Shown here: piece by piece, positions 14,888 to 56,039 of the stretch
How the letters are laid out: each line of letters begins with the position of its first letter
Position numbering within the stretch: position 1 is the first letter of the stretch
DNA from: a virus
Taxonomy: Duplodnaviria > Caudoviricetes
Reading direction: 5' to 3' (one strand)
Length of the DNA stretch: 64,000 nt
IMG/VR virus record: IMGVR_UViG_2974601178_000001
Span: 32,001-96,000 of that record
The notes under the pieces: generated by a model
Seen by the model: the letters and a program-made list of their open reading frames with translations, nothing else
What the model was told of the DNA's origin: nothing
The model's database searches: none
Program-made: the position numbers and the translations under genes

Positions 14888-15692
14888 AAGAAAGAAGAGT
14901 AAAATTTATCCTGATGGGAGTAAGTGGTTGCAAAATAATGGATGTTACTTGGAAGTGGTAGAATTTCTAGGTAATGGGTCTTTTATGGTTAAGTTCGAGG
15001 ACAGTCCTGTATTTAAAGCTGATGCCAAAGAGTTTAGAAAAGGGGTAGTTAAGAATAAAAATAAACCTCAGGTATACAATGTAGGGTACATGGGGTATGG
15101 AGAGTTTATGTCCAAAAACTCTTCTAAAAAGCATACACCTGAGTACGAGGTATGGAGGGGAGTGATTCGAAGATGTTATGATGAAAATGCGACTAGTTAC
15201 AATATCTATGGAGGAAAAGGAGTTACTGTTTGCAAAGAATGGCACAACTTCCAAAATTTTGCCCAATGGTATACAAGTTTACCTAATTACAATAAAGGTT
15301 TCAATCTTGATAAGGACTTACTGGATAAAAGCAACATAACATATTCACCAGAAAAATGTACCCTTGTACCTACTTCGGTAAATTCACTTTTCACAGGAGG
15401 TTTTAAAACTATAGTATTCCTGAGACGAGATAAATGGGTTGTTCAAATGCAGATGGGTGAAAAGTGTCTCAATGGTAATAAACGCCAATCTTACTTTGGA
15501 GAATATCATGACCGAGATGAGGCAATAGAAGTTTACTTTGAAAATAAGATTAAACATGTTATAAGTGTTGCCAATAAAGAAAAGGAAAATCTTGATGAAA
15601 TGGTTTATCTGAATTTAACTAACCCTGCTTGGATAAGAGAATACATCGAAGAATTAACACTTTCTCACAAGGACAATGGAGAAGAAGAATGA
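14880..15692 (+). CDS. Putative HNH-type homing endonuclease
   Basis: WxGxIxRCY, VCKEWHNFQNFAQW, LDKDLL, YSPEKC. Confidence 0.8.
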   Translation: MTKRKKSKIYPDGSKWLQNNGCYLEVVEFLGNGSFMVKFEDSPVFKADAKEFRKGVVKNKNKPQVYNVGYMGYGEFMSKNSSKKHTPEYEVWRGVIRRCYDENATSYNIYGGKGVTVCKEWHNFQNFAQWYTSLPNYNKGFNLDKDLLDKSNITYSPEKCTLVPTSVNSLFTGGFKTIVFLRRDKWVVQMQMGEKCLNGNKRQSYFGEYHDRDEAIEVYFENKIKHVISVANKEKENLDEMVYLNLTNPAWIREYIEELTLSHKDNGEEE

Positions 15693-31790: not shown

Positions 31791-32210
31791 ATAAAATTAA
31801 TTTAATTTATTTTTAAAAAAGTATTGTAATCTTATATTAGGTGCGTATAATGGAATACATAGAAACAAGCATGCGAACTTTAGCGAAAGCGGGAACGGTG
31901 GAGAATAAAACACCGAGGCTGCGTGAAATTTAAAATGTTATGATATAACATAACAACTATTTTGCTATAATATAACATCTCATATATTTTGATACAGTAT
32001 AATATGGTATTGAAAATGTAATTCGGTTTTTGGGAGATGATTCTAAGTTTTATGAAAATTTTTTGGGTCTCGGGTAAATGATTTTTCTACCCAGTTCTTA
32101 AGTTGTTGATTTTAAAGAATATTATTTTCGTATCGAGTTCTAAATGATTTTTCATAAAATTAGAAGAACCTGTTAACAAGAATGACTTCTATAACAGGTT
32201 CTTATTTTAA

Positions 32211-36623: not shown

Positions 36624-37289
36624 TTACAACAGGGTCTCATTTTCCTCATTTAAACTTTCTAAAAGTATATTTGCATGAAGTAGTAATCCGTTTTTGACAC
36701 GGTCGTCCTCTTGTTCAGAAGCTACTTGCAGGATGAGTGCGTGTTTGTATGTGACATAGGCTTCGTATGCTTGTTGCTCTGTTGGGTATCTTCCTAAGTT
36801 CTTTTGTTGGCCTGAACCGTCGTTACATTGTGCTAAGAATTTACCCCTGTCTTTGTTAAAATGCACACCTTTCTTGTAACTACCTCTTTTTGCGCCTCTG
36901 TCTGTTAATAATTTATTAACTTTACTACTAACAAAAACACAAGCATCGGGAGAATACACTTTATTATTAGGTAGAATTATATCTTTGTCTAATTGTTTAC
37001 CCTTCCGATCTTGGGTCTCCATCCATTGACGGAAGTTAGAGAATGTGTGCCATTCTTTGCAAACAGAAACCTCCTTGTAGGCAGGTTGTTTCTCCTTTGA
37101 TTTAAGACAGTACCCTCTCTCAAGAATACCCATCCACCTCGTATAATAGGGGCAACGAGTATACTTTCCGTTTACTTTTTGTGAGGTCTTATACCAAGAA
37201 TCATTCACCCCTACTCCATACAACAATGTTCTGTGAGCTAAATCTGATTTACTAGCAGTAACTCTCTGAAAATCATATTCTTCTTTCAT
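36624..37289 (-). CDS. Putative HNH-type homing endonuclease
   Basis: YGVGVND, VCKEWHTFSNF, LDKDII, YSPDAC, KGV...LGRY. Confidence 0.8.
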   Translation of the reverse strand: MKEEYDFQRVTASKSDLAHRTLLYGVGVNDSWYKTSQKVNGKYTRCPYYTRWMGILERGYCLKSKEKQPAYKEVSVCKEWHTFSNFRQWMETQDRKGKQLDKDIILPNNKVYSPDACVFVSSKVNKLLTDRGAKRGSYKKGVHFNKDRGKFLAQCNDGSGQQKNLGRYPTEQQAYEAYVTYKHALILQVASEQEDDRVKNGLLLHANILLESLNEENETLL

Positions 37290-49425: not shown

Positions 49426-51969
49426 ATGCAAGCAGAGTTTTTAAAAGATAAGAGTAAGTATACAGACAGAGTACTTCACTCTGATATAGAAGGTCGTGGC
49501 TTTCTAGATGTTATAAAATCAGACAAAGATGTTTGGTGTTTAGTATCAAGAGATGATGAAACAGATGAAGTATTTATATTTCATGATTACCCTGAGTTTG
49601 ATAATGCAGAAGTGTTTGATCAAGGAGAGAAACATATCATACCTCCAAGAACAGGGACACTTTTAGATGGGGTTAGATTTTGGTACTTGGCAGGTAAGAA
49701 CGGTAGTAAACTTTCGGTACACAACTGCTTCACATACGATAAACCTTTGGTTGAAAAGATTTGGCCTAAATGTACAATTGAAGATGATGTGTGGATAGAT
49801 ACCTTCATACAAAGTAAAATACAATATTTTGACAGACCTCAGCGTAAAGGTGCTAAATCTCCTCATGGTTTGTTGAACTACTCTTTAATGGAAGGTAATA
49901 AGAAACCAGAAGTTGAAGACTTTAGTATAATGAATGCTTTTATGCTACATCGTTGTATCATAGATACAAAAACTCAAAAATTTGCATACAATTACCTCAA
50001 GAAAGAAAGGGAAATGTTGAAAAGTAAATTAGGTATTTGTATGGAAGATGCTTATAAGGTGGAAGTAGAGTATACTAAGAATTGTCATGAACAAGAGATG
50101 GTAGGTGTCCTAGCTGATAAACCTCATATGGAAGCTTGTATATCTCTTTGGGATGAAAAGGCAGAAGAAATCCAGAAAGCAATAGAGCCTGTTTTACCTC
50201 CTACTATAAAAGTTTCTGGTGGTAAAGTTTCTCGTGTAGAAATGGCTGCTTTATTTGGGTATGATACCTCTGGTATGAAAGATGCTATGGAGATGGTTAA
50301 GAAAGATGGGGAAATGGTTTCTCAACCAGTTAAACCCTACTACAAACCCACAACCAATTTTCATACTGTTAAAAAAGTCAATCAATATTCAGGTTTTAAT
50401 ATTTCCTACGGATATAGTCCTAAGTTCACTAAAAAGAATGATTTGACTAAATGGATTAAGTATCAACATCCTAAAGGTGACACTGCAAAAGTGAAAGAGT
50501 TATCAGACTTCGTAAAAGAGTGGGAAATTGAGAAAAACATTGAAGAAACTAAACTTTTAAATAAAAACACTTGTGACTATTTTGAATTAGAACCCGAAGA
50601 TACAGATATAATTGCAGGTGCTCATACTAAAATTAAGTTCACTCCTAGTAAACTTACACAACATGAGGTAGTTAAAGGCTTTTTGATAAAAAATGGATTA
50701 AAAGAAGTATCCGAATGGAATTTTAAGAAAGATTCCGATGGAAGTTTTATAAAAGCAGATAAAGAACTTTTAGTGAGCTACCCACCTAAAGCTACTAAAG
50801 AAAACCAGCTACATTACAAAGTTAAAAAGGGTGATATAATGGTTAGTAGTCCTAAGGTATCAGAAAAAGATTATGAAGGCTTAGAGAACGAAGACGCTAA
50901 ACGTATAGGAGAGTACAATACTACTGTACACCGTAGGAGATTCTTATCCAATGAAAAAGACCCCTCCAATAAAGGGTTAATGGCTTATATAAGAGAAGAT
51001 GGGAGAATACCTTGTGGTATAAACAACTTCTCTACTAGCTCAGGAAGGGGTAGCCACAGAAAATGGGTTAATGCTGCGGGAGAAGGTAGCCTTTACGGAG
51101 AAGAAATAAGGAAATGCTTGATAGCCCCAGAAGGTAGGAGATTAGTAGGTGCGGATATGGCATCAGCTCAGCTAGCTATACTGTCTTTCTACGCAAGAAA
51201 TGAGGAATACTATGAAGCGGTTGCATCTGGATTAGAATTAGAAAAAGATGACAATGGAGTAGAAAAGTATGTAGGTATGAGCGCCCACTGTCATTCCGCC
51301 CGTAACTTTGGGATGGTTAGTATAGAAGAGTTTGAAAAAGCTGTAGAAACCCAAGACCCAGATTTAATACATAGTATTAGTCTTAGACGTAAGAAAAGTA
51401 AAGGGGCTTCTTTTGGAGTTTGTTTTGGATGTTCAGGTAAAAAACTTGCAGGGATGTTGGGTGTACCTGAGTCAGAAGGTAACGCTAAAAAAGATATGTT
51501 CTTATCACGAATGGGTTTACAGGGTATCATAGACTGGGGAGATAAGTATAAAGACCAGTTTAAAAGAGGTAAAGGGTTTTACCTACCATTACCATTTGGA
51601 TATTGGGCTTGGTGTGACTCTACCCATAAAATATGTAATTTTCTAGCTCAGGGTGCAGAAGCTGCATGTCAGAAAATAGCAGTAAACTATTTTAATAGAG
51701 AAGTTGTTAAAAGAGGATTAGATGCTTTTAAAGTTCTAGATTATCATGATGAATTTTTGGTAGAAGCCTCTGATCAGGATGCGGAAGAAGCAGGTAAACT
51801 TATGTGCGAAGCTTACAAGTATGCTAGTGACCAGTGTTTTGAATGGTATAAAGAAAATCCTGACAAGTTTCCTAACATACACGGAGGGGTTTTATTTGCA
51901 TTTAATCTGGATGGAGGTTACAAGGTCTCTGAGTTAGGTAATAAAGGTAACTACCTACAAACACACTAA
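49426..51969 (+). CDS. polA: DNA polymerase, family A, with 3'-5' exonuclease
   Basis: DIE, HNxxxYD, RCxxD exonuclease motifs; GADM, RxxxKxxxFG, QG, YHDE. Confidence 0.93.
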   Translation: MQAEFLKDKSKYTDRVLHSDIEGRGFLDVIKSDKDVWCLVSRDDETDEVFIFHDYPEFDNAEVFDQGEKHIIPPRTGTLLDGVRFWYLAGKNGSKLSVHNCFTYDKPLVEKIWPKCTIEDDVWIDTFIQSKIQYFDRPQRKGAKSPHGLLNYSLMEGNKKPEVEDFSIMNAFMLHRCIIDTKTQKFAYNYLKKEREMLKSKLGICMEDAYKVEVEYTKNCHEQEMVGVLADKPHMEACISLWDEKAEEIQKAIEPVLPPTIKVSGGKVSRVEMAALFGYDTSGMKDAMEMVKKDGEMVSQPVKPYYKPTTNFHTVKKVNQYSGFNISYGYSPKFTKKNDLTKWIKYQHPKGDTAKVKELSDFVKEWEIEKNIEETKLLNKNTCDYFELEPEDTDIIAGAHTKIKFTPSKLTQHEVVKGFLIKNGLKEVSEWNFKKDSDGSFIKADKELLVSYPPKATKENQLHYKVKKGDIMVSSPKVSEKDYEGLENEDAKRIGEYNTTVHRRRFLSNEKDPSNKGLMAYIREDGRIPCGINNFSTSSGRGSHRKWVNAAGEGSLYGEEIRKCLIAPEGRRLVGADMASAQLAILSFYARNEEYYEAVASGLELEKDDNGVEKYVGMSAHCHSARNFGMVSIEEFEKAVETQDPDLIHSISLRRKKSKGASFGVCFGCSGKKLAGMLGVPESEGNAKKDMFLSRMGLQGIIDWGDKYKDQFKRGKGFYLPLPFGYWAWCDSTHKICNFLAQGAEAACQKIAVNYFNREVVKRGLDAFKVLDYHDEFLVEASDQDAEEAGKLMCEAYKYASDQCFEWYKENPDKFPNIHGGVLFAFNLDGGYKVSELGNKGNYLQTH

Positions 51970-52197: not shown

Positions 52198-53244
52198 ATG
52201 TCAATAACTGAAGATAAAAATAAAGAAATACTTTATAAACTAGAAAATAAGTATCAACAAAGAGTTGTAGATTTGTTAGGACCCTCCGCCACTTTCTTAG
52301 AGTTTAAAGTAGTTAGTGAAAGGTTAGATAAAAACAAATGCAAACTTATTTGTAACACACATAAGGAAATATGTTACCCTCAAATAGCTAATGTACTTCA
52401 TAGAAAAAGAAGCGGATGTAAACATTGCGCTCAAGAATCTAGAAATAGAAAGAGTATAAAAGATGAAGATGTTTTCTTAGAAGAGCTGAGAGAATCTTGT
52501 GATAAACATAACTGTACCTTTCTAGGCTACGTAGAAGGATACAAAGGTTCTTACCATACCGAAGTTAAACTAAAGTGTAATATACATACCGAAGAAGATG
52601 AATTTACATGTACAGGTAGAACACTGTCTAGACCCGCAAGAAAAACTTCAGGGTGTCCTTCCTGTTTTAATGAACATTTTTTACAACTATCTATAAAAAG
52701 AAATCAAAAACATATAAATATGTTTTTCGATACAGGTAAATTCCATCCCAATTCTACTTTCTGTAGAGATGAAGAAAGAAAAACTACACAAGGAGTTAGG
52801 AGTTACTGGAAGGTTGTTTGTGGTGATTGTGGTGAAAGCTACCCTTCCTGTACAGGAACTTTAAAAGCAGGTAGTAGGGGATGCAGTTGTGCTAAACTAA
52901 CTAACAATATGGGATTTTACCCAGATAGGGTGAATTGGGATGACACTCTTTACTTATTAAAACTGATATCTAAAAAGGATTGTGATGAAAAAGAGTGTTT
53001 CTATAAGATAGGTAGATCTTTTTGTTTTGACAAAAGACTTTCTAATTTAAAAGCTCATTATGATATAGATGTAATATCTACTATTACTAATAACCATAAA
53101 GAAATTTTTGAAAAAGAGAAGCACCTTTTAAAAAGTAATAAACCCCATGCTTACTCTCCTCTTATCTCCTTCGGAGGTCAAGGAGAATGTTTCACCAAAG
53201 AAATACTCAATCACCCAGAAATAATATCCACCTTCAACCTCTAA
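52198..53244 (+). CDS. Zn-finger repeat protein with C-terminal GIY-YIG-like (YKIG) endonuclease domain
   Basis: CxxH...GCxxC repeats; LYLL...FYKIGRS...RL...FGGxxECF. Confidence 0.7.
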   Translation: MSITEDKNKEILYKLENKYQQRVVDLLGPSATFLEFKVVSERLDKNKCKLICNTHKEICYPQIANVLHRKRSGCKHCAQESRNRKSIKDEDVFLEELRESCDKHNCTFLGYVEGYKGSYHTEVKLKCNIHTEEDEFTCTGRTLSRPARKTSGCPSCFNEHFLQLSIKRNQKHINMFFDTGKFHPNSTFCRDEERKTTQGVRSYWKVVCGDCGESYPSCTGTLKAGSRGCSCAKLTNNMGFYPDRVNWDDTLYLLKLISKKDCDEKECFYKIGRSFCFDKRLSNLKAHYDIDVISTITNNHKEIFEKEKHLLKSNKPHAYSPLISFGGQGECFTKEILNHPEIISTFNL

Positions 53245-53311
53245 TAACCAAAAAGCCCTCCCACGAGGGCATCCCCCTTCCCAACCAACCCCCTTTCCCC
53301 CAAATTTCCCC

Positions 53312-53340
53312 TTGACACCATCACACCTTTCCCTTAATAT
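53312..53340 (+). promoter_or_regulatory. sigma70 promoter
   Basis: TTGACA-17-TAATAT. Confidence 0.7.
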
Positions 53341-53394
53341 ATCTACTATCGAAGCAACATTGCTTCACAATTAACCATTTTAGGAGAAATAATC

Positions 53395-53598
53395 ATGACC
53401 AAATCAATAACCCGCTCAGAATCAGCTACTCACTCATTCAGAATATCTTATGGCAGCAAAGGTAACTTTGAATTAAAGTACTCTCGCATCAAGAAGGGTG
53501 CTGGAAAAGGTAAACTTCGTACAAGAGTGTTTTATCGGAAAGGTAATACTTTTGAAAATTTAACTTGGGGTTTAAATGAAAACATACAATGTATTTAA
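53395..53598 (+). CDS. Small basic protein; probable 5' part of a gene interrupted by the TnpB element
   Basis: SD AGGAG; ...RVFYRKG-NT then runs into TnpB; a compatible 3' part NTYVVCKNGEYNFKKETLL* lies at 55278-55337. Confidence 0.6.
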   Translation: MTKSITRSESATHSFRISYGSKGNFELKYSRIKKGAGKGKLRTRVFYRKGNTFENLTWGLNENIQCI

Positions 53599-55027
53599 AA
53601 CTTATAGGTTTGAACTAAGAGACCTATCTAAGAAGAAAATTAAATTACTAAATCAATCTTATAAACAAGCAGAGATGCTATATTATAAAGCACTATCTCT
53701 ATGTAAAGAAGATGCTGAGAAGATGTTATTAATTGATGATAAGAAAGAACGTAAGACGGAGAGTTACAAACTTGCCAAAAAGTTGCAAGCTATTGTTAAA
53801 CCTTTACCGTATTCAAGTGCAATTAAATCATCTGTCATAGAAGGTGTTAAAGCACAGGTATTATCTTATGTAGAACTAACATTATATGGGCAAGATGCAA
53901 CTTATCCAGAGAAGTTTGATTTAGAATATGATTATGATTATTGGTTGAATGTCCTTATTAACAGCGATTCAAAAGATATAGAAGACTTAGCAAGAGATGA
54001 AATGTCCCGTACCAAAGTTAAAGACTTCAGGCCACTTACTTATGAAAAGTATAGAACTAATGACGGATTTATGATCCTTGATAATGGAGAAGGTCGTTTG
54101 TATGCAATGTTGAGTTTATGGGGTGCTAAAGATAAACGAGCAACACCATTAGATATTAACATGATTGATACACGGACAGGAGAAGAATTTAAGAAGAAAA
54201 CTTCTTGTGGATTATTATTCCCATTGATGTGCTCTAATACTCAAAAACAAGCTCTTATAGATGGTCAAGCTAAGACAGCTAAACTTGTAAAACGTGGTGA
54301 CAGGTATTTTCTAATGGTAAGTGTTGCCTTTGAAGTAGAGGCTAGGTCACCAAAATATACCCTTGGGGTTGATAGAGGTATAGAAGAAATAGCTACATAC
54401 GTTGTACGTGACGAATCAGGTAAAGTTGTTGATAAGGGGAGTTTCTCTGGTGTACAATTACGTAACCATCAAAGAAGAGTGGAACTAGCACAAAAGAATA
54501 ATCAACGTGCAGGAAGAAAACGAGTGCAAGGTTGGAGTAATTACACAACAAACCTGATGCACAATTTATCTAATGAGATAGTGAAGGTAGCTGATAAATA
54601 TTGTTGTCAGGTTGTTATTGAGGATTTGAATAATATAAAGAATAATGCTAACATGAAACGTAAGAAAGGTGCAAGGAAGTCAAACTTTAGAAGAATGTTA
54701 TCTAGGCAACAGTATGGAAGGCTGGAGTTTATGTTAGAATATAAACTTAAAGCAAAAGGGTTACCTCCTTCTAAAAGTGTAAGGGCTGCCTACACATCAA
54801 CAACCTGCCCTAAATGTGGTAATGTTGATAAAGAAAATCGTCTGACACGAGATACATTCTTATGTAAAGTGTGCGACTACACTGAACACGCTGATATTGT
54901 AGGTGCTATAAATATTGCTGGAAAACAGTTGCACTTTGAAAAGATTAAAGGTAAACTTAAGAAAGGGAAACCTTTACCATATGAATTGAAGTATTCAAAT
55001 TGGTTGAAAGATAATTTAAAATTATAG
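53576..55027 (+). CDS. tnpB: TnpB/Cas12f-like RNA-guided endonuclease (483 aa)
   Basis: RuvC-I LGVDRG, RuvC-II VVIEDL, Zn ribbon TSxxCPKCG...CKVC, RuvC-III HADIVGAINI; D-E-D triad intact. Confidence 0.9.
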   Translation: MKTYNVFKTYRFELRDLSKKKIKLLNQSYKQAEMLYYKALSLCKEDAEKMLLIDDKKERKTESYKLAKKLQAIVKPLPYSSAIKSSVIEGVKAQVLSYVELTLYGQDATYPEKFDLEYDYDYWLNVLINSDSKDIEDLARDEMSRTKVKDFRPLTYEKYRTNDGFMILDNGEGRLYAMLSLWGAKDKRATPLDINMIDTRTGEEFKKKTSCGLLFPLMCSNTQKQALIDGQAKTAKLVKRGDRYFLMVSVAFEVEARSPKYTLGVDRGIEEIATYVVRDESGKVVDKGSFSGVQLRNHQRRVELAQKNNQRAGRKRVQGWSNYTTNLMHNLSNEIVKVADKYCCQVVIEDLNNIKNNANMKRKKGARKSNFRRMLSRQQYGRLEFMLEYKLKAKGLPPSKSVRAAYTSTTCPKCGNVDKENRLTRDTFLCKVCDYTEHADIVGAINIAGKQLHFEKIKGKLKKGKPLPYELKYSNWLKDNLKL

Positions 55028-55055
55028 TTGACTTCAAGTTTTAGTTAAGTATAAT
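55028..55055 (+). promoter_or_regulatory. sigma70 promoter for the TnpB-associated RNA
   Basis: TTGACT-16-TATAAT starting immediately after the tnpB stop codon. Confidence 0.7.
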
Positions 55056-55061
55056 GAACTG

Positions 55062-55300
55062 GGTAAATTGCTGAGTTACAATTAAAAATAACTTAGGGTG
55101 CATAGAGGTTTGTGAAGTGATTTATTAACCTCTTTATCTTACCACCCTTTTACTGAGGTTATCTTGTATGAGAGGATTTATCTTCCTTGAGTTAACTTTG
55201 GTATAAAATCTTACCTTATATGTGAGTAAGCAAAGCTTATGATCGGAGATATGTAATCGTGAGGTGGTATGAGATATAACACATACGTGGTATGTAAGAA
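55062..55300 (+). ncRNA. Putative omegaRNA/sgRNA-like scaffold (~55062-55280) plus guide (~55281-55300)
   Basis: Stems CTGAGTTA/TAACTTAG, AGAGGTT/AACCTCT, TACTGAGGTTA/TAACTTTGGTA, CTTAC/GTAAG; long-range TATCTTACCACC (55135-55146) with GGTGGTA(TG)AGATA (55263-55276). Confidence 0.65.
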
Positions 55301-55333
55301 CGGGGAATATAATTTTAAAAAGGAAACCTTATT

Positions 55334-55729
55334 ATGAATATTTCACAACACTTTGGCAAATTTACCAACTTACCGCAAGCATCTCGCACAAGTTTATTAG
55401 CTATTGCAGATGGGCACTTTCACTCAATTGATAACACTACTGGTCATGAGGTGTTTGCCATAAATAGAGGACTTGCACACTGGTTGCTACACAATTGTGA
55501 ACATGAAGTTCCTCCTTTGGAAAAGGCTCGTTCTGCAAGTATTCTTGCTCATCAATATTCAACTTCTGGTGCAAAAACCTCTTGGCCTAAGAAACCAATT
55601 GTGATAAACTGTGATGAAGCTCGTATCGAAGACGGAGTTACACGATTGTACGCAATTGCTTATGCACAAACGGAAGGTGTCTGTATGCCAGTTGTGTTCA
55701 AAACTGAAATTAATGACGAGGAAGAATAA
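55334..55729 (+). CDS. Hypothetical protein with ParB-N-like motif
   Basis: PIVI...IEDGVTRLYAI. Confidence 0.55.
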   Translation: MNISQHFGKFTNLPQASRTSLLAIADGHFHSIDNTTGHEVFAINRGLAHWLLHNCEHEVPPLEKARSASILAHQYSTSGAKTSWPKKPIVINCDEARIEDGVTRLYAIAYAQTEGVCMPVVFKTEINDEEE

Positions 55730-55730
55730 T

Positions 55731-56039
55731 ATGTGTAAAAAGGATCAATGTCAGCAAAAGTGTAAATCCTGTATAAAAAACTACACTGACGCAGAAGCAC
55801 CAATTAAACAATACAATATAACTTTAGAAGAAGGAAACCCTGCTATGAATTGGAAAGAACAACAGCGGCACGATGATATCATTCTTGAAATTGAAACTTT
55901 GTGCAAAGGTATCACCTCTGCAGAGAAGGATAAGCGCCTAGAGGAAGTGTCTGAGCTTGTTAAAGAGTTGCAGGGTACATTGGCTTATGCTGCTAAGATT
56001 GGTGTTGTCACAGACGCTTACAAACACTTTGTACGATAG
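55731..56039 (+). CDS. Hypothetical protein
   Basis: Likely start ATG 55731 after GAGG. Confidence 0.55.
   Translation: MCKKDQCQQKCKSCIKNYTDAEAPIKQYNITLEEGNPAMNWKEQQRHDDIILEIETLCKGITSAEKDKRLEEVSELVKELQGTLAYAAKIGVVTDAYKHFVR

Follow-up and report, generated by a model that had tools for sequence, protein, structure and literature searches.

How is an RNA-guided nuclease directed in a phage that provides it with neither a transposase nor a CRISPR array? The question is raised by a stretch of 64,000 nucleotides (nt), positions 32,001 to 96,000 of the IMG/VR record IMGVR_UViG_2974601178_000001, a 120-kb genome with terminal repeats; the whole stretch is called the window here, and positions are counted within it unless a locus label precedes them. 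It carries a gene for a 483-amino-acid (aa) protein, which an earlier note, made from the letters alone, took for a TnpB-like nuclease inserted in a phage gene and guided by the adjoining flank. The outline of that proposal stands, namely an RNA-guided nuclease without a transposase and with the adjoining flank as its likely guide, while the identity as TnpB, the position of the guide and the target-adjacent motif (TAM) do not. We propose, giving it about an even chance, that the cassette at about 53565-55298 is a phage-borne Cas12f module which has lost its array, has gained a natural single guide and may cut the alleles of rival phages. One comparison on which it draws is with a sister locus, L005, and the following parts of the cassette and its right flank are concerned:

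53576-55027, plus strand: cas12f-like gene, 483 aa, with the RuvC residues D266 (54371-54373), E349 (54620-54622) and D440 (54893-54895) and a zinc-ribbon TNB domain
55028-55055, plus strand: promoter TTGACT-N16-TATAAT, beginning at the first base past the nuclease stop; the best promoter match of the region
55064-55282, plus strand: predicted scaffold of the trans-activating CRISPR RNA (tracrRNA) type, its 3' end an anti-repeat; identical to the L005 scaffold over 55072-55283
55283-55298, plus strand: 3' part of a repeat, 16 nt with one substitution, fused to the anti-repeat end at 55282 and ending in the handle GUAAG
55299-55330, plus strand: right flank and putative fixed guide; leader and ribosome-binding site of the next gene

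The nuclease

Profile searches and a predicted structure together identify the 483-aa protein as a Cas12f-type nuclease with an intact catalytic site. It has both a split RuvC domain with the D-E-D triad and a zinc-ribbon TNB domain (Pfam Cas12f1-like_TNB, PF07282, 1.9e-16), and D266, E349, D440 and the two CxxC pairs of the zinc ribbon are invariant in an alignment of 24 family sequences, in agreement with the intact triad described in the earlier note. The top PADLOC model is Cas12u3, a full-length match at 3.4e-33; of two NCBIfam models, guided_TnpB passes its cut-off (111 bits against 100) and Cas12f2 stays below its own (106 bits against 450). An AlphaFold model with a predicted local distance difference test score (pLDDT) of 84.7 has AsCas12f as its top Foldseek hits (8j3r, 8dzj and 8j12, about 1e-16, template modelling scores of 0.56-0.65), and the top ten are Cas12f throughout, with TnpB at 6e-10 to 6e-8. 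The nearest folds are those of AsCas12f, CnCas12f1, OsCas12f and SpCas12f1, with TnpB and Cas12p well behind. We rejected an identity as Cas12p (the "hacker"), which matches the predicted fold far less well than Cas12f does.

The nuclease has about 45 relatives, from 96% down to 31% identical. Its ratio of nonsynonymous to synonymous substitution rates (dN/dS) against L005 is 0.10, and the gene is single-copy in the 120-kb genome, as it is in Motilimonas. The earlier note had seen no tnpA nearby, and a search of the whole 120-kb genome for the Y1 transposase (PF01797, TnpA) was negative. Our best reading of the gene is a miniature type V-F-like CRISPR-Cas12f derivative in a lytic marine phage, not a TnpB of the IS200/IS605 insertion sequences. 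With type V-F1 (formerly V-U3) Cas12f proteins such as AsCas12f, CnCas12f1 and SpCas12f1 it shares size, domain order, intact RuvC and zinc ribbon, the best fold match and the absence of adaptation genes, and also an RNA with a long tracrRNA, a 3' anti-repeat and a second pairing adjoining the spacer. It differs from them in sequence, being only 14-18% identical to the solved proteins and below the NCBIfam Cas12f2 cut-off, and in its setting, which is a lytic phage without an array in which the tracrRNA is joined to a repeat remnant.

The scaffold RNA and its family

The stretch between the nuclease gene and the next gene, which starts at 55334, is a non-coding gap of 306 bases. The promoter at its beginning recurs clearly behind the stop codon in three related phage loci (L004, L005 and L044). 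Between the window and L005, the scaffold that follows shows no difference over 212 nt, and 99 differences occur within the 1735 nt compared. RNAalifold, applied to six scaffolds, gave a fold of 54 pairs, 20 of them with compensatory changes, and a covariance model built from this fold located the scaffold in every locus. Over 17 scaffolds, 91% of the cells are paired (41-47% with slid partners) and 45 of the 54 pairs change on both sides, figures that come from an alignment fitted to the covariance model and hence biased towards the structure. The 3' end of the scaffold is complementary to nt 1-16 of the repeat in L005, L006, L010, L022 and L024, and the last five bases of the repeat, which adjoin the spacer, form pairs with a conserved loop inside the scaffold. 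This loop and its handle covary, reading CUUAC/GUAAG in the phage type, CUUCA/UGAAG and CUUCU/GGAAG in two Veronia modules and UUUCU/AGAAA in Photobacterium. Together, these pairings and covariations show the predicted RNA gene downstream of the nuclease to be the tracrRNA of the family, and the RNA scaffold that the earlier note placed 3' of the nuclease gene is thereby borne out; a search of 53000-56000 against Rfam gave no family match. In Veronia pacifica, two tracrRNA-plus-array modules with about 10 and 5 repeats stand around one cas12f gene (L011:3961-4900 and L011:6486-7070); their repeats differ slightly, and each handle fits the loop of its own scaffold.

Arrays are present in 12 related loci in total. 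Six of these are of the phage type (L004, L005, L006, L013, L021 and L044) and consist of the gene, a scaffold with anti-repeat, an AT-rich leader and a mini-array in which 2-5 repeats, each 28 nt long, follow one another at a period of 60 nt; the same repeat length and period are found in the bacterial loci L008, L010, L011, L022, L024 and L025. Mobile elements of Vibrionaceae and Motilimonas carry the tracrRNA, an array of 3-10 repeats and the gene. Two Motilimonas spacers match one other genome with 2-3 mismatches, one of the protospacers lying in a prophage tail-tube gene, and both protospacers are preceded by GCC. Because of these matches to another genome, a prophage gene among them, the nuclease family is, judging by its sequences, a working CRISPR family. 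The Veronia and Motilimonas arrays had no matches among phages and plasmids, those of Veronia and V. alfacsensis gave only chance-level hits in 401 genomes, which were disregarded, and the repeat pattern gave 0 hits in the metagenomes of the Joint Genome Institute (JGI).

Some related loci depart from the common layout. One spacer of L013 is just 15 nt long (L013:2640-2660), which suggests a deletion inside the array. L044 has its cas12f cassette directly after a phage transfer RNA gene cluster (L044:150-310), another distinct insertion context. L014 (L014:2104-2140) and L015 carry an 81%-identical phage cas12f without a downstream scaffold or array, their guide modules all lying upstream.

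The fusion of anti-repeat and repeat

Within this family, the window differs from its closest relative at one telling place. The 96%-identical sister locus L005 is still split, with a separate tracrRNA and array: after ...AACAC it continues into the leader and the array, whereas the window continues into the last 16 nt of a repeat and then into the flank, so that the cassette ends exactly at the repeat end (55298). The segment 55269-55298 matches the repeats of relatives at 86-92%. No second repeat and no array were found in the window or in the whole genome, where this 16-nt remnant is the only one, in line with what the earlier note had said about arrays. Of the repeat:anti-repeat stem, the fusion retains the proximal 4 base pairs (bp), GUAU...AUAC. 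Also kept are the linker and the handle GUAAG, together with the loop CUUAC at 55139-55143, with which the handle pairs. Since similar 8-mers occur at the anti-repeat end and inside the repeat, the fusion can be explained by a deletion. We infer from this arrangement that the fusion forms a natural truncated single guide, with the guide starting at 55299.

Scaffolds of a comparable kind are found elsewhere in the family, at L004 622-820 and L014 124-341, both on the minus strand and upstream of cas12f. Behind each come a hairpin, a linker with UAU at its end and a handle of five bases, and the handles match the altered loops of their own scaffolds (GUCAC/GUGAC and GUAGA/UCUAC). Both scaffolds point outward from the cassette, so their guides would be flank as well; these stand-alone copies have the look of natural single guides that would run on into the flank. 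A third stand-alone scaffold copy lies upstream of cas12f at L014:365-577 on the plus strand.

The right flank and the rival allele

Position 55299 is also the point from which related phages resemble the window again, ahead of the following gene:

55334-55729, plus strand: 131-aa gene (phrog_17206), without the promoter of its own that the HM1 counterpart has

Starting at 55299, phage HM1, whose host is Pseudoalteromonas sp. H71, and the IMG/VR relative G001 share 93-94% identity with the window, and the bases before that point are unrelated. The first 31 nt (55299-55329) are identical in both phages, where they are preceded by ...TTATTCC. HM1 has the promoter TTGACT-N16-TAATAT upstream and then ...TTATTCC directly before the shared sequence; 55299-55333 is therefore a leader and not the coding sequence for which the earlier note had taken it. 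In the window, the 131-aa gene is presumably read through from the scaffold promoter. The sequence before the putative guide is repeat in the window's own copy and CC in HM1 and G001, and this CC resembles the GCC before the two Motilimonas protospacers. Within its own genome, the putative guide has no second match.

Between the shared flanks, HM1 has four other open reading frames (ORFs) at L001:4419-6000 where the window has 53358-55298; both HM1 and G001 thus carry a different four-ORF module and not an empty site. A flank common to related phages without the cassette, as the earlier note expected, is accordingly found in these two, but the empty allele with contiguous flanks that went with it is not: megablast and blastn against the phage collection and a scan of IMG/VR returned only HM1, G001 and a third phage, H101, none of which joins the flanks.

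A proposed mechanism and the points against it

In the mechanism that we propose, similar 8-mers, one at the end of the tracrRNA and one inside a repeat, would have been the limits of a deletion that created a natural single-guide RNA, which would read scaffold, short closing stem (GUAU...AUAC), linker, handle GUAAG and guide from 55299. A strong promoter of its own would drive transcription of this RNA, and Cas12f would thereby receive a single, unchanging guide. The window's own copy would be spared by the repeat sequence that stands in place of a protospacer-adjacent motif (PAM), and HM1-type genomes, with CC at that place, would be cut in the leader of the shared gene during co-infection. 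Such a cut might simply harm the rival, or repair of the break on a cassette-bearing genome might copy the cassette, which would be a homing-like outcome.

Several findings weigh against this mechanism. The fusion leaves just those 4 bp of the repeat:anti-repeat duplex, and there is no terminator before the 131-aa gene, so that the guide would lie inside the leader of a messenger RNA. The role given to CC depends on a bacterial relative that is 56% identical and on two protospacers only. For the spacers of the phage-type loci, no protospacers were found in the genome of the window, the fetched loci, the phage collection, IMG/VR or the 401 sampled genomes of the Motilimonas order. Moreover, of the seven phage loci that have a scaffold downstream, six retain their array and the window is the sole exception, which implies that the fusion is recent; neither the identity of the scaffold nor the low dN/dS can be credited to the period after it.

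Alternative explanations

The reading favoured in the earlier note depends on the left side of the cassette, where two features matter:

53312-53340, plus strand: sigma-70-like promoter TTGACA-N17-TAATAT, upstream of the 67-aa ORF and the nuclease gene and inside the left block shared with HM1 (53246-53357)
53395-53598, plus strand: 67-aa ORF, homologue of H101 gp034, which overlaps the start of the 483-aa ORF; native end at about 53564, last 9 codons within the cassette

According to that reading, an IS200/IS605-type TnpB sits inside a split phage gene, which would be rebuilt by joining 53547 to 55281; the guide would begin at about 55281, the TAM would end near GGTAAT and the target would be the uninterrupted gene. 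It is true that the frame 55278-55337 is open and that its stop overlaps the next ATG as ATGA, as the joined gene would have it. However, phage H101 lacks a nuclease gene of this kind, and its 85-aa gp034, alignable with the 67-aa ORF over residues 12-58 of the latter, terminates two codons past ...NLTW (...NTVDNLTWCV and stop), so the ORF is whole to about 53564 and nothing is rebuilt by the joining; H101 thereby supplies the very full-length homologue, ending ...NT(V/F)(D/E)NLTW, that the note itself had named as speaking against the split. The proposed guide (about 55281-55300) consists mostly of the repeat remnant and is handle rather than guide, the TAM is without basis, and from 55299 onward the sequence is, in HM1, a non-coding leader preceded by a promoter. 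With no flank-joining allele in the phage collection or IMG/VR, no TnpA, a single-copy gene and an RNA that has its own promoter after the stop codon, we consider a TnpB in a split gene very improbable.

The main alternative to a working single guide is that the locus is a decayed orphan: the tracrRNA terminator would have gone in a deletion together with the leader and the array, leaving an RNA with no working guide and no target, and the nuclease gene and the scaffold would be intact merely because the event is recent. The solitary loss of the array, the shortened duplex and the missing terminator all speak for it, and the scaffold shared without a change with L005 fits a very recent event. 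Yet the ORF, its catalytic residues and the promoter are intact under a low dN/dS, the handle has been kept together with its partner loop, single-guide scaffolds with co-varying handles recur in the family, which implies that such a layout can work, and the would-be guide flank matches a rival allele behind CC; decay seems to us possible but rather doubtful. Another use of the same parts would be regulatory or structural, the fixed-guide complex, or the scaffold as a long leader, controlling the 131-aa gene or the cassette without any cutting of rivals, much as natural single guides repress cas9 or steer dead Cas12f. The guide does cover the ribosome-binding region of the 131-aa gene, which has lost its HM1-type promoter and is not set apart from the guide by a terminator, and collapsed single guides with a regulatory use have been published (PMC12259090). 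Unlike in the dead regulators, though, the nuclease site is intact and conserved, and the lack of a second guide match in the phage's own genome also counts against control of this kind, which we regard as quite unlikely.

Comparison with known systems

If the cassette is indeed a Cas12f module with a fixed guide, a published parallel is the nuclease-dead Cas12f in which the dual guide has collapsed to a single chimeric guide RNA (Hoffmann et al., PMC12259090). Both have one RNA of scaffold plus guide and have lost the link to an array. In the window, however, the nuclease has an intact site, the cassette's own flank instead of a distant promoter would be the guide, and the collapse can be dated against a sister locus that has not undergone it. 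CRISPR mini-arrays carried by viruses, and CRISPR systems that phages encode and direct at related viruses (reviewed in PMC11656645), resemble the related phage loci, which have 1-4 spacers and no adaptation genes and for which competition between phages would be expected; these phages differ in supplying their own effector and tracrRNA, and the window copy in having one hard-wired guide.

The likeness to IS200/IS605 TnpB and its omegaRNA is one of logic: the guide would be the DNA just beyond the end of the element, the own copy would be protected by lacking an adjacent motif, and the element-free allele is expected to be cut. Unlike TnpB, the window locus has no TnpA or insertion sequence ends, is single-copy and has a CRISPR repeat as its 3' handle, and its RNA would start past the stop codon, from a promoter of its own and with no ORF overlap. 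Jin et al. (2025) are said to have described transposon-CRISPR intermediates under the name TranC; the window family likewise uses both array-borne guides and omegaRNA-like single guides, but no transposon context is seen at the window locus.

The window and its sister, as a natural pair, show the states before and after a dual guide of tracrRNA and CRISPR RNA (crRNA) collapsed into a single one, a step hitherto argued mainly for nuclease-dead Cas12f. Phages that have been cultured and sequenced carry an alternative allele that the putative fixed guide matches, which makes it possible to test directly at the bench whether phages compete, or home, by means of a guide RNA. With its naturally shortened repeat:anti-repeat stem, the fusion also offers a compact guide design, ready as it stands, for this Cas12f clade.

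A wider reading, which we consider unlikely, is that these Cas12f cassettes act in phages as RNA-guided homing modules. Outward-facing guide RNAs, whether a terminal repeat or a stand-alone single guide, would set their ends, so that the flank is the guide. New insertions would then arise by recombination of a spacer with the protospacer that had just been cut, and this origin would account for the coincidence of cassette end and repeat end in the window, compared with HM1, as well as in L005, compared with an AP2-type endonuclease gene. The terminal repeat of L005 adjoins the last ~40 codons of such a gene (L005:5926-6020), a fragment homologous to window 36624-37289 on the minus strand. Integration of this sort fits the repeat-end junctions and is speculation on our part. 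The genome of the window has AP2 paralogues at 36627-37289 (minus strand), at 15138-15590 (plus strand) and once outside the window, and the AP2 paralogue in the window is too diverged to yield a PAM for the L005 flank. The translated repeat shows an apparent YVTY likeness to the AP2 gene, which we put down to chance. Were the homing reading true, a CRISPR system would have reverted to the selfish logic of TnpB.

Neighbouring genes

Upstream of the cassette, the family-A DNA polymerase of the window is a single 847-aa ORF (49426-51969). In HM1, whose record is marked UNVERIFIED, the polymerase is split into parts of 782 aa and 68 aa with about 280 nt between them (L001:794-3142 and L001:3428-3634), which could reflect an intron, an intein or a sequencing error. 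Downstream of the polymerase, the window has a 348-aa endonuclease-like gene at 52198-53244 (phrog_681, with a weak CapR domain), and HM1 has an unrelated 239-aa HNH-like ORF (L001:3582-4301). On this comparison of gene content, the stretch behind the polymerase is a hot spot at which endonuclease cassettes are exchanged.

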